A stretch of DNA of 46,572 nucleotides. Source: Thermotogota bacterium. Its GTDB lineage: Bacteria; Bipolaricaulota; Bipolaricaulia; UBA7950; UBA9294. The stretch spans positions 1 through 46,572 of the forward strand of contig JBDKUT010000125.1 in the NCBI GenBank assembly GCA_039679545.1, read 5' to 3'. Positions within the stretch are counted from its first letter, which is position 1; the number at the start of each line of letters is the position of its first letter. The notes beneath the pieces are model-generated. The model had not been told where the DNA came from. It worked only from the letters and a program-made list of their open reading frames with translations, and searched no databases. This document shows positions 39,943-46,572 of the stretch, piece by piece. The position numbers were made by a program, and so were the translations under genes.

Positions 39943-40887
39943 TCACACCGTGATGACGATCTTCCCGCGGGCGTGGCCTTCTTCGAGATAGCCGATGGCG
40001 TCGGGGACTTCGCTCAGCGTGTAGGTTCGATCGATGACGGGCGTGACCTTCCCGGCCTCGATGAGGCCCGTCAGGATCTCGAGATCGTCCTTGTTGCGCT
40101 TCGCGATGAGCTGCACAAGACTCTGGCTCGCGAATGGCGAGACGATCGGCAACGCCAGAACGCGGGCCATTCGTCCTCCGACGTGGACGTAGACCGCCTT
40201 GGGCGCCAGCACGCGTCGGCACGCGCGAAGTGCTCGGTTTCCCACGGTGTCGAGCATCAGGTCGTAGCGCGCCCCGCCCCGCGTGAAGTCCTCGCGCGTG
40301 TAGTCGACGACGTGGTCGGCGCCGATCTTGCGGACCATCTCGACGTTCTTCGTGCTGCAGACGCCCGTGACCTCAGCGCCGAACGACTTCGCAATCTGGA
40401 CTGCGAAGGTACCCACGCCGCCCGACGCGCCGAGGATCAAGACCTTCTGGCCGGCCCGAATCTTCCCGCTGTCGCGCAGACCCTGGAGAGCCGTCATCCC
40501 CGCCATCGGCACGGCGGCCGCCTGCTCGAACGACAGATTCGCCGGCTTCTTCGCCAGCCAGCGCTCCGGAACGCACGCATACTCAGCGAACGCTCCAGCA
40601 CCTTCGCCGAAGGCCGCGTCGCCCGCGCGGAACCGCGTCACGTCCTTGCCCACCGCCTCGACCTCGCCAGCCAGATCCGCGCCCAGCCTGTGGTCCTTCG
40701 GCCTGAACCACCCGAACATCGCCCGAGTGAACAGTGGCTTCGCGCGCATGAAGTGCCAGTCGTACGGATTCGCCGACGCCGCGCGAATGCGCACCAGAAC
40801 GCCGTCGTCGGTAACGCTCGGCTTATCGACATCTCGGAGCTCCAGAACGTCGGGAGACCCGTACCTCTCGTAGATGATGGCTTTCAT
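39943..40887 (-). CDS. MDR-superfamily NAD(P)-dependent oxidoreductase (quinone oxidoreductase-like)
   Basis: MKAIIYERYGSPDVL, NPYDW, GADLAGEVEAVG, GASGGVGTFAVQ, GHARGKIVI; no catalytic Zn Cys set evident. Confidence 0.92.
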   Translation of the reverse strand: MKAIIYERYGSPDVLELRDVDKPSVTDDGVLVRIRAASANPYDWHFMRAKPLFTRAMFGWFRPKDHRLGADLAGEVEAVGKDVTRFRAGDAAFGEGAGAFAEYACVPERWLAKKPANLSFEQAAAVPMAGMTALQGLRDSGKIRAGQKVLILGASGGVGTFAVQIAKSFGAEVTGVCSTKNVEMVRKIGADHVVDYTREDFTRGGARYDLMLDTVGNRALRACRRVLAPKAVYVHVGGRMARVLALPIVSPFASQSLVQLIAKRNKDDLEILTGLIEAGKVTPVIDRTYTLSEVPDAIGYLEEGHARGKIVITV

Positions 40888-40967
40888 CCTGCCCCCTTGT
40901 GGCCTGATGTCGAGTCGCGTGCAGTATGCCTCACGGGGAGGCATAAAAGCTCACGGCTGGTTTGGAC

Positions 40968-42084: not shown

Positions 42085-42360
42085 GGAGCGGAGAGGGCCA
42101 GCCGCCGTGCGACGCGCGGCGATCCCAGGCCCGCCCATGATCTGAAAACCCTCGACCGGAGCCACCCGAACATCGTTGAGTCTCGGCTGTATCTGATGAT
42201 GCGTGATTACAAGACCTGACCCTCGCGCCCCGGAAGACCTCACGGCTTCCCGATACGGCACTCCTGATTGACGGCGACGAGTATGCCACATTCAGGCGGA
42301 CGAGGGCGCTTCCGCGTTGCGTGAGATGATGCGTGATCTCAAGACCTGACCCTGTCGCCT

Positions 42361-42600
42361 GCCCACCGCCTCGACCTCGCCCGCCAGGTCAGCGCCCAGC
42401 CTCTGGTCCTTCGGCTTGAACCACCCGAACATCGCCCGGGTGAACAGCGGCTTCGCACGCATGAAGTGCCAGTCGTACGGATTCGTCGACGCCGCGCGGA
42501 TGCGCACCAGAACGCCGTCATCAGTGACGGCCGGCTTGTCGACGTCCCTCAGTTCCAGAACACCAGGAGACCCGTACCTCTCGTAGACGATGGCTTTCAT
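42361..42600 (-). pseudogene. 5' fragment (80 codons) of the MDR oxidoreductase, truncated next to a family A repeat
   Basis: 74/80 aa identical to the N-terminus of 39943-40887; homology stops ~8 nt from the repeat at 42352. Confidence 0.9.
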
Positions 42601-42814
42601 TGCGCCCTCCTCACTCCGCGCTGCTCACAGGGCTACGAAGGGTATGCCGTACGCGGACAGGTGGAGGCACCTTCCGTACTGAGTCCGCAGATGTGTCATT
42701 GCAGGACCTGACCCCGGCGCCACGAAGAAGTGCCAGACACCAAAGCCCACAGAAGCACTGCTGCCAATCATCACCAAGACCTTGACGGGCAAATTCGTAG
42801 CCATAACACCCCGG

Positions 42815-42960
42815 CGTGTATCAAGCGCCAGTCGTACGGGTCTGCGGTCGCCGCGCGAGCGCTGGCCAGGGCGCCGTCGGTGGCGACCGCCGGCTTGTCG
42901 ATGTCACGGAGTTCCAGACCATCGGGAGTCCCATACTTCTCGCAGAAGATCGCCCGAGTG
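42815..42960 (-). pseudogene. Degenerate third 5' fragment of the MDR oxidoreductase
   Basis: Minus strand reads RAIFCEKYGTPDGLELRDIDKPAVATDGALASARAATADPYDWRLIHA vs KAIIYERYGSPDVLELRDVDKPSVTDDGVLVRIRAASANPYDWHFMRA; start codon lost. Confidence 0.85.
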
Positions 42961-43159
42961 GCATCCTTCCCATTCGGCGCTGCTCACGGGGCTACGAGGA
43001 GTATGCCGTATGCGCGGCGACAGAGGCACTTCTTGAGCTGCGTAGGGGATGTGTCATTTCAAGACCTGACCCTCGCGCCCGTGCAAGCGGGACTATCGTG
43101 TCATGGCGTGAGCGGGTATTCCATCCCCGCATCCGCCGCGGCTCCGAACGGGCGGCGGG

Positions 43160-43470
43160 GTCTACCATCGGATCTTGCCGGAGACGGGAACATCCCCGGC
43201 GCGTGTAGACGGCTGCTTGTGCCGAGCAGCTTGAGAGTTGCTGCAGCAACTCCTTCAGCGTTGGCGGCGTGTAGCTCCTGAGGTCGGCGGCCTCTTCGGA
43301 GTCACCGCTCGATCGTGAAATGCCGCCCCCGTCATCTGTGCCATCCAGGGAAGTCCGAAGGGTGATGGTGGGCTGTCCAGCGTAGCTGGACAGCTCGAGA
43401 GTTGCTGCGCAACTCCTTCTCCGCTGTGGTTCTGAGCAGTAGACGAGACCGCCTGGATGGGCGAACTCGC
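43160..43470 (+). ncRNA. Candidate IS110 bridge-RNA-like structured non-coding region
   Basis: Two homologous double-hairpin units (43211-43256, 43371-43419), closing stem CCATCCAGG/CCTGGATGG (43341-43349/43452-43460), directly upstream of an IS110-like N-terminus. Confidence 0.6.
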
Positions 43471-43487
43471 GCTGCAAGGAGGCACGC

Positions 43488-43676
43488 ATGGACTCTCAGC
43501 TTCGTGTCGGCGTGGACGTCGGCTGCCACGCACACCGGGTCGGCATCGCCGCCCCCGGCGTCCCACTAGCGGTTTCGTGGGTGTTTTTCGACCACTGCGT
43601 GGATGATCGTCATGCCGCTTTTTGCCTGTGCACTCGACCAGAACGCGCGGGCCTTGCGCTCACGGCGCAAGGTTAG
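43488..43676 (+). pseudogene. Truncated IS110-family recombinase/transposase (N-terminal ~24 aa only)
   Basis: RBS AAGGAGG; MDSQLRVGVDVGCHAHRVGIAAPG resembles the IS110 RuvC-like G(I/V)D...H start, then unrelated sequence. Confidence 0.7.
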
Positions 43677-43739
43677 ATCTTGGCTCTTGCTGTCAAGACG
43701 CGGGTCTAGCCACATCGACCGTTCCGACGACCCACGGGT

Positions 43740-44903
43740 CTAGACCCGCTGGTGTCGGCGATTGAACAGCCAGGTGCCGAGGGCGAAGTAGCCGGCGGTC
43801 AAGACCAGGATCCCACCGAGCTCGAAGCCGACGTCGCCAAGGCCGGCGCCGAAGCTGAGGATCTTGTTGAAGGCGCGGACGCACAAGGTTGTGGGCAGGA
43901 TGTCGTTCACGTAGAGGGTATGGCCTGCGATCACCAGCGCTCGGATCTTGGGCAGCGGGAACATGCACTCCGAGAAGAACATGAGCACGAAGAACGGGAA
44001 GACGCCGACAGTCAGGAGCTCGAACATCGATTTGAGGAACGCCGAGATGAGAACTGCGATGGCGACCACCCCTAGCGTCGTCGCCGCACCGACGACGAGA
44101 AGTGCCGGGAGTGATCCGGCGCTCTCGTATCCGCAGGACAGGGCGGCGAGATAGGCGAGCGTGAGCGCCACGAGGCCCAGGAAGACCTGGTTCACCGACA
44201 CGGCGGTGAGGAGCTCCGAGGTGCGTAGTCTCGAGAGCATGAGCCGGGTCATCGTGCCTTTGTCGACCTCCTTGATGAGGGAGGTCGCGGCGGTGAAGAG
44301 AACCATGATGAGGGCGAGCACGAGCAGGGCCGGCACGAAGAGGTCGAAGTCGCTGACCGGGCGGCCGCTGCCGAGCGAAGTCACGGACACGTCGAGGGGC
44401 ATGTCTGCCCCGGTGCGCTCGGCGACGTGCGAGAAGGCAACGTAGTCCGACATCGCCATCGCCATGGAGCCGCGCAGGTTCCGCTCGTCGGCGTAGTTCG
44501 TCAGCCGCGCCGGAGGGGCGCTCCTGTCTTCGCCGTACTTCCGAACGGCGGCGGAGAAGCCTGCGGGGATCACCACGACGAGGTCCGCGTCGCGCTCCTT
44601 GACCTGGGCGCGCGCTGCCGCAAGGTCGGTCGTCTCGATGATCGCGAACACCGGGCTGCCATCGGGATGCGCCGCCTCGCGCCAGGCGCGCACGAGCGTC
44701 TCGGACTCGGCGCCCACAGGTTCACCCAGGTCAATCTGAATGTCGTGGTTGACGACGAGCAAGCGATACGAAGGAGTTGCGGCGCTGTAGTAGCCGTACA
44801 TCATGTAGACGAAGGCCGGCGCGAAGACGAGCGCGAGGCACAGGATCTTCCACTCGCGGAGGTTCTCGAGGAACGTCTTCTTCAGGTAAGCGAGCGTCCT
44901 CAT
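43740..44903 (-). CDS. ABC-2 type exporter permease
   Basis: Start reassigned to ATG 44903; N-terminal TM, extracytoplasmic domain, KEVDKGTMTRL, C-terminal TM helices. Confidence 0.88.
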   Translation of the reverse strand: MRTLAYLKKTFLENLREWKILCLALVFAPAFVYMMYGYYSAATPSYRLLVVNHDIQIDLGEPVGAESETLVRAWREAAHPDGSPVFAIIETTDLAAARAQVKERDADLVVVIPAGFSAAVRKYGEDRSAPPARLTNYADERNLRGSMAMAMSDYVAFSHVAERTGADMPLDVSVTSLGSGRPVSDFDLFVPALLVLALIMVLFTAATSLIKEVDKGTMTRLMLSRLRTSELLTAVSVNQVFLGLVALTLAYLAALSCGYESAGSLPALLVVGAATTLGVVAIAVLISAFLKSMFELLTVGVFPFFVLMFFSECMFPLPKIRALVIAGHTLYVNDILPTTLCVRAFNKILSFGAGLGDVGFELGGILVLTAGYFALGTWLFNRRHQRV

Positions 44904-46498: not shown

Positions 46499-46572
46499 TC
46501 CCCTGGATGGCCGGCGCTGTCAAGCGCCGGTGGACAGCGGGGGCTACCATCGGATTCTGTGTAGGGGGACGG

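Follow-up and report, generated by a model that had tools for sequence, protein, structure and literature searches.

The closest described systems are the IS110-group elements IS621 and ISCro4 (PMC11208160, PMC13626964; PDB 8wt6, 9t56), whose bridge RNA is described as lying in the left end, before the recombinase gene, with the target loop preceding the donor loop. According to these accounts, the left guides copy the top strand, the right guides complement the core plus 2-3 nt, the left donor guide is mismatched at position 7, a sigma-70 promoter is formed at the junction and a repeat serves as target. The family to which the present locus belongs shares all of these traits. It differs from IS621 and ISCro4 in its core (TC instead of CT), in its recombinase of 401 aa, weakly similar to theirs, and in its target, the GGGGTCAG repeat of TIRYT cassettes; the copy found in the window, that is the whole 46,572-nt stretch of DNA analysed here, is furthermore truncated and decayed.

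IS110 elements homing to short palindromic repeats are described in ISPpu9, together with its orphan ssr9 modules, and in ISPpu10 (PMC12288879; 10.64898/2026.03.19.712850), and RNA modules devoid of a transposase exist. An orphan ssr9 module is reported to retain both end boxes and to form circles (PMC12288879), whereas the window locus has the left end alone. The target of the present family fits GGGGWSAS, described as the terminal inverted repeat of TIRtrons/TIRYT (PMC3733652; subclass 2.1 in PMC6006769), and in the window's genome this repeat flanks, on both sides, a Y1 gene with an HTH-like tail at its C-terminus. The passages of these two papers devoted to TIRtron repeats do not mention IS110 elements targeting them. 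GTAG-tagged REPs and Rickettsia palindromic elements (PMC3733652) are, like the inserts reported below, short imperfect palindromes that occur close to the ends of genes as well as within genes and within other repeats. The inserts differ from REPs in being low-copy, with at most 7 pattern matches per genome, and in consisting of two unlike hairpins in tandem, with a strong bias for IS110 DNA and, at most insertion points, 1-3 additional bases lying 5-6 nt upstream. Comparable short palindromes are also found among the small dispersed repeats of cyanobacteria. At the level of titles and abstract openings, the literature yielded neither an IS110 element targeting TIRtron repeats nor hairpin inserts in bridge RNAs; large IS110 supplement tables (e.g. 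PMC11208160) may include the clade.

The locus is read here as a truncated left end of an IS110-group element, whose predicted bridge RNA is likely non-functional and whose two double hairpins are later inserts; a probability of roughly 85% is assigned to this reading. The bridge-RNA gene of the window is genuine yet decayed and of a known type, and is not the intact orphan proposed by the first-pass annotation. The landmarks of that proposal, namely GTCTACCATC at 43160-43169, the hexamers GTAGAC (43205-43210) and GATGGT (43364-43369), the stem formed by 43341-43349 and 43452-43460, the ribosome-binding site and the ATG, are all present in the sequence. Segment 43150-43490 folds better than 100 of 100 dinucleotide shuffles (z -3.66), and Rfam returned no match up to E 10 for 42900-43900.

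The ribosome-binding site AAGGAGG (43476-43482), kept ahead of the start codon in the relatives, precedes codons 1-24 of an IS110 DEDD recombinase (43488-43559, plus strand as for all features below unless stated, ATG at 43488). The encoded peptide is 70% identical to the first 23 residues of the full-length relative P0001 (401 aa), in which PF01548 (E 6e-23) and PF02371 (E 8e-18), the DEDD and Tnp domains, were detected; its earlier identification as the N-terminus of an IS110 recombinase was thus correct. P0001 is itself weakly similar to the ISCro4 and IS621 recombinase structures (E 1e-13 and 1e-10). The remainder of the 62-aa open reading frame, which gave no match with Pfam, is read-through into unrelated DNA. 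At the DNA level, 45 of the 184 genomes searched in the phylum gave matches, one of them holding the full-length P0001, and a metagenome scan added 70 loci. Plasmids searched with tblastn at E 1e-30 yielded no relative, and viral contigs contained neither relatives of the element nor the insert pattern.

Intact relatives are ~1.5 kb long and are sited in GGGG-TC-AG. Their aligned upstream regions begin at GGGG-TC-TACCAT, and TTGAAA-N9-GG(G/A)ATGT-TC-AG(G/A)TCTT is found 3' of the stop codon. TC was taken as the core because it alone is common to both junctions, the predicted target being GGGG-TC-AG and the predicted donor junction GGGATGT-TC-TAC. In the window, the left half of the insertion site, GGGG, is located at 43157-43160; position by position, it agrees with the left target guide in 26, 30, 30 and 30 of 32 intact relatives. 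It is followed at 43161-43168 by the core TC, present at both ends of the intact relatives, and by the start of the left end, where the TACCAT previously described as -10-like is the predicted -10 box of a circle-junction promoter. As the right ends of intact relatives display TTGAAA or TTGACA followed by 15 nt and TC, the joined ends would give TTGAAA (31/40), TTGACA (6/40) or another sequence (3/40), then 17 nt and TACCAT or TATCAT, with the -35/-10 spacing preset by the search pattern and the left-end core positions by the extraction pattern. A junction promoter of this kind is described for IS621 (PMC11208160). By analogy with that element, a complete copy would excise at the TC core, its joined ends would form the TTGAAA-17-TACCAT promoter, and the RNA and recombinase would insert the circle into another repeat flanking TIRYT (Y1 tyrosine transposase) genes.

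Such repeats are present in the window's genome, where inverted GGGGTCAG copies at C150:26432(+) and 27353(-) bracket a Y1 gene (PF01797); the interval G000 C150:26432-27353 (L181) is a complete, TIRtron-like Y1 tyrosine transposase cassette. Y1 genes also adjoin the right end of the element in L067, L068 and L078. At L088:1812-1973, the right target guide is TTGA and the flank TC-AA; the identical left end L090 sits in TC-AG, which fits wobble pairing. An apparent second IS110 family uses the same GGGGTCAG repeat in the opposite orientation and at the neighbouring dinucleotide, and sometimes abuts the right end of the first family. It was seen at the G000 contig ends C87, C108 and C130 and at loci L059, L082, L113, L162 and L167, and two of its copies carry the double-hairpin insert in the 3' end of the gene.

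The fold of the family bridge RNA was derived from 40 of 43 full-length elements, L067, L070 and L071 being omitted because their inserts took them above 200 nt. Across the 40 intact elements, 25 named pairs forming two domains are paired in 91.5% of cells, with compensatory changes at 12 pairs; none of 500 shuffles scored as high and slid controls reached 38-56%. In place of the RNAalifold solution, in which GTC pairs with some bases of the right donor guide, a longer basal stem was adopted that is paired in 75% of cells. The first, target loop contains the guides GGGGTC and CTGA, and the second, donor loop GGGATG(G/A)T and GTAGA. The left target guide, a match just 6 nt long, agrees with its site in 26-31 of 32 elements at each of six positions, the right target guide in 35-38 of 38 at four positions, the right donor guide in 34-35 of 35 at five positions, and the left donor guide in 38-40 of 40 at seven positions. 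The left donor guide never matches at position 7 (0 of 40), which is likewise the position described as tolerant in IS621 (PMC11208160). All four guides are exact in 16 of 33 elements, against none in each of 100 base shuffles. These matches mostly mirror the conservation of one target and one donor.

Two donor-guide positions covary with the element ends, with counts of 8/0/1/31 at left donor position 3 and 4/1/0/30 at right donor position 5. On the tree, the left-donor change occurs in two or three clades and the right-donor change in one; the support is therefore modest, and Fisher values overstate it since the elements are related. The 6-nt complementarities singled out by the first-pass annotation are not the guides. 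The leader hexamer GTAGAC is exact in 19 of 61 left ends, which does not suit a guide. GATGGT, noted there as a reverse complement, is the tail of the left donor guide and matches the right end directly. That the DNA ahead of the peptide forms the left end of this IS110 element and carries a predicted bridge RNA is borne out by the family fold and the guide matches.

The family model places the window RNA at 43261-43464, with an end-to-end match of 79 bits (E 3e-19). The closest insert-free relatives, L002 and L007, reach 144.8 bits on the same model; much of the lower score of the window comes from the insert, as the insert-bearing full-length elements L070 and L071 score 67-71 bits. Alignment with relatives delimits a 5' leader at 43169-43210. 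It is followed at 43211-43262 by a first double-hairpin insert, still in the leader and upstream of the target loop, which replaces ~7 nt; it is missing from L002 and L007 and shared with L008. The predicted target-binding domain, delimited by the family alignment and model, extends from 43263 to 43333, and its guides, located by the alignment, read GAGGTC on the left (43280-43285; family GGGGTC) and GTGA on the right (43315-43318; family CTGA). The predicted donor-binding domain, defined in the same way, covers 43342-43459. Its left guide, GGG[TG]ATGGT (43360-43369), has 2 nt inserted, shown in brackets, and its right guide, GTAGA (43439-43443), is intact. The apical hairpin of this loop is replaced by the second double-hairpin insert (43371-43425), for which L004 is the nearest sister with the same insert.

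The two inserts form the cores of the two units that had been interpreted as the target and donor loops, an assignment that fails since the real target loop lies between them. The double hairpins do match, and GGGAA..TCC and CTGAG can be recognised on their flanks as described, although these flanks belong to non-equivalent parts of the RNA. The units are not a conserved scaffold either, as double hairpins are carried by 3 of the 43 full-length elements fetched by protein (L032, L070 and L071). Nor was the RNA kept intact: three of its four guides differ from those of the family, the right donor guide alone being canonical, and the basal stem of the target loop has lost one base and contains two mismatches.

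Downstream of codon 24, the DNA switches at a junction located at ~43560-43565 to a segment (43565-43665, minus strand) that belongs upstream of an AAA_14/DUF4143 ATPase gene and is 80-90% identical to the DNA preceding such genes in three relatives (G142, G126, G160); the ATPase gene itself is missing. The recombinase is thus deleted, as had been noticed in the first reading of the sequence. On the simplest reading, a single deletion would have taken the recombinase body, the right end and the ATPase gene, joining codon 24 to the ATPase upstream region. An assembly artefact at the junction was rejected because contigs from X1 and X2, two sequencing runs of one study that may be the source sample, span it and differ from the window at 0 and 1 positions. 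Motif searches detected no right end at the locus or elsewhere in the 2.35-Mb assembly, and no -35 box is present upstream of TACCAT in the window. The degenerate repeat at 43671-43699 was considered as a right end and rejected, for it matches GGGTCAGATCTT repeat copies (those of L134 and L008) and is without the right-end motif. Because the right end is missing, the window copy would be unable to excise as a unit and would have no promoter, and would hence be decaying; for the same reason it does not qualify as a non-autonomous element of the ssr9 type, contrary to what had been suggested. Classification of 87 left ends gave 41 full-length, 14 truncated and 32 undecidable cases, with no short two-ended element; truncated remnants are therefore common. 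One RNA run from the same study as X1 and X2 contains nothing on the locus and carries no information on its expression.

The insert is ~55 nt long and consists of GGCT-stem-loop-stem-AGCT followed by GAGTTGC-loop-GCAACTC and ~10 variable bases. Aligned over 30 nt, the two units of the window are 93% identical, with an E value of 2.4e-4 in a whole-genome search, and the GAGTTGC-loop-GCAACTC hairpin is confined to these two copies in the 2.35-Mb assembly. Inserts, 31 in all, were found in 17 of 96 left-end records, a set that includes loci fetched for the insert and one locus counted twice. They occupy at least five positions (first leader hairpin, after GTAGAC, 5' strand of the target loop, apical stem of the target loop, and donor loop), with up to four per copy; their stems differ in sequence and retain pairing. 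At most sites, 1-3 extra bases are found 5-6 nt upstream of the insert. In all seven donor-loop carriers (the window, L004, L006, L070, L071, L130 and L138), inspection by eye located 2-3 extra bases within the left donor guide, which consequently no longer matches the right end.

In a tree of 61 left ends, built after removal of gappy columns and without L071, which the extraction missed, the six tagged donor-loop carriers are spread over three clades, all of them with insert-free sisters, and the hypothesis that the six form one clade is rejected (p-AU 2.5e-6). Either repeated insertion or gene conversion could yield this pattern. Across the 184 genomes, the insert pattern gave 31 matches in 18, against 1 for the reversed control, with a maximum of 7 per genome and 2 in the genome of the window. 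Once 4 palindromic double counts are dropped, 27 matches remain, which were sorted by eye: 16 fall in family left ends, 2 at the 3' end of the apparent second IS110 family and 7 within or close to other genes, and the last 2 are chance-like. Left-end copies had supplied the pattern, so that the bias towards IS110 is overstated. As inserts clearly occur outside the element, they are not part of its scaffold. An exact-pattern scan for the second hairpin in genome contigs returned 10 matches, L030 alone being related and the others chance-like. A fixed rule tying the variable tails of the inserts to nearby sequence was also considered and abandoned, no consistent pairing being apparent by eye. 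Many inserts follow GTAG or GTGG, yet this tag matches the insert-free site and is absent in some cases; it appears to derive from the target site. In related genomes (L153, L164, L159, L160 and L161), the double-hairpin insert is also observed at gene 3' ends and, apparently, within a short gene. Other, unrelated hairpins are inserted in the left-end RNA of L067, L080, L038, L095/L098/L100/L102/L112/L125 and L119, so that the RNA gene behaves as a sink for small palindromes.

The inserts would most likely be small mobile palindromes of the REP/RPE type, an assignment that we make tentatively. Our best guess for their mover is an HUH tyrosine transposase, putatively with a preference for IS110 DNA; a Y1 gene is present in the window's genome, and its link to insert movement is putative. 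A bolder and rather doubtful extension would regard the double hairpin as a miniature parasite that repeatedly enters IS110 bridge-RNA genes, including one donor-loop site in three lineages, breaks their guides by adding 1-3 bases just upstream and turns autonomous elements into its passengers, the likely mover being the very TIRYT whose repeats the IS110 invades, hence a reciprocal conflict.

Alternatively, the hairpins could be tolerated or even useful extensions of the scaffold, insert-bearing RNAs remaining active and perhaps the window RNA as well before its deletion. Inserts need not stop movement, since L032, L070 and L071 are full-length and display open frames and clean junctions. The same 5' insert moreover occurs in different flanks (L032/L138 versus L070), a second copy present in X1 and X2 combines a donor-loop insert with the canonical CTGA guide, and the length of the apical hairpin varies naturally. 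Against this, every one of the seven donor-loop inserts accompanies extra bases that break the left donor guide, and the movement of insert-bearing copies can be explained by RNA supplied by insert-free siblings because only the ends are needed in cis. This alternative is considered unlikely.

PF01548 had no match in the assembly and PF02371 a single fragment at a contig end; a helper copy may nonetheless exist, given an assembly completeness of 93.6% and a contig break at a second left end. The start of the latter, which matches the family left ends and has the core GC, is located at 46539-46572, and the contig ends where the relatives L030 and L156 have a hairpin insert. The other copy held by contigs of X1 and X2 has, besides the guide and insert mentioned above, a recombinase C-terminus with a right end. 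Placed on the full-length L081 at 80%, these contigs cover the ends alone, and the copy may belong to another organism because its 16-base right-flank motif has no exact match in the assembly.

The second left end also raises the possibility that the surviving one serves as an outer boundary for the 46539 copy, the ABC-transporter and TetR genes in between being excisable as cargo. The two left ends point the same way, GGGG-TC-TACCAT is retained in the remnant but altered at the core in the downstream one, and cargo-bearing IS110s are described (10.64898/2026.08.14.744561); however, the contig stops 34 nt into the second left end with no sign of a following recombinase gene or right end, and this arrangement appears very unlikely. 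The original proposal, under which the bridge RNA outlived the recombinase intact, with the double hairpins as its two guide units, and works in trans or moves as a non-autonomous element, can draw on the end-to-end model match, the intact right donor guide, the second left end 3.4 kb away, the X1/X2 copy with its recombinase C-terminus and right end, and reports that bridge RNA works in trans and can be expressed by read-through (PMC11208160, PMC13626964), but is hardly credible given a locus with no right end, and so neither donor junction nor -35 box, three of four guides altered, double hairpins missing from 40 of 43 intact relatives and no short two-ended form among 87 left ends.

The truncated left end is itself a relic. 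It comes from a readable bridge-recombinase clade whose core is TC and whose very short target falls on TIRYT terminal repeats, and this clade usefully extends the range of programmable recombinases known from nature. In the recurrent hairpin inserts, bridge RNAs are seen to be disrupted naturally, and at defined places. Should the inserts be targeted, they would point to a defence or a hyperparasite acting on the guide RNA gene; should they be tolerated, they would provide a map of sites where bridge RNAs accept 50-nt additions.

Other repeats were noted in the vicinity. Four copies of the GGGTCAGGTC repeat are found within 900 nt on the minus strand (42198-42230, 42318-42359, 42690-42721 and 43048-43079), where they bound duplicated fragments. 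The zinc-dehydrogenase-like gene at 39943-40944 is partially duplicated at 42292-42600. Directly after the stop codon of a minus-strand ABC permease gene, a hairpin with GCGGGTCTAG and CTAGACCCGC as its arms (43700-43749) is likely a terminator.
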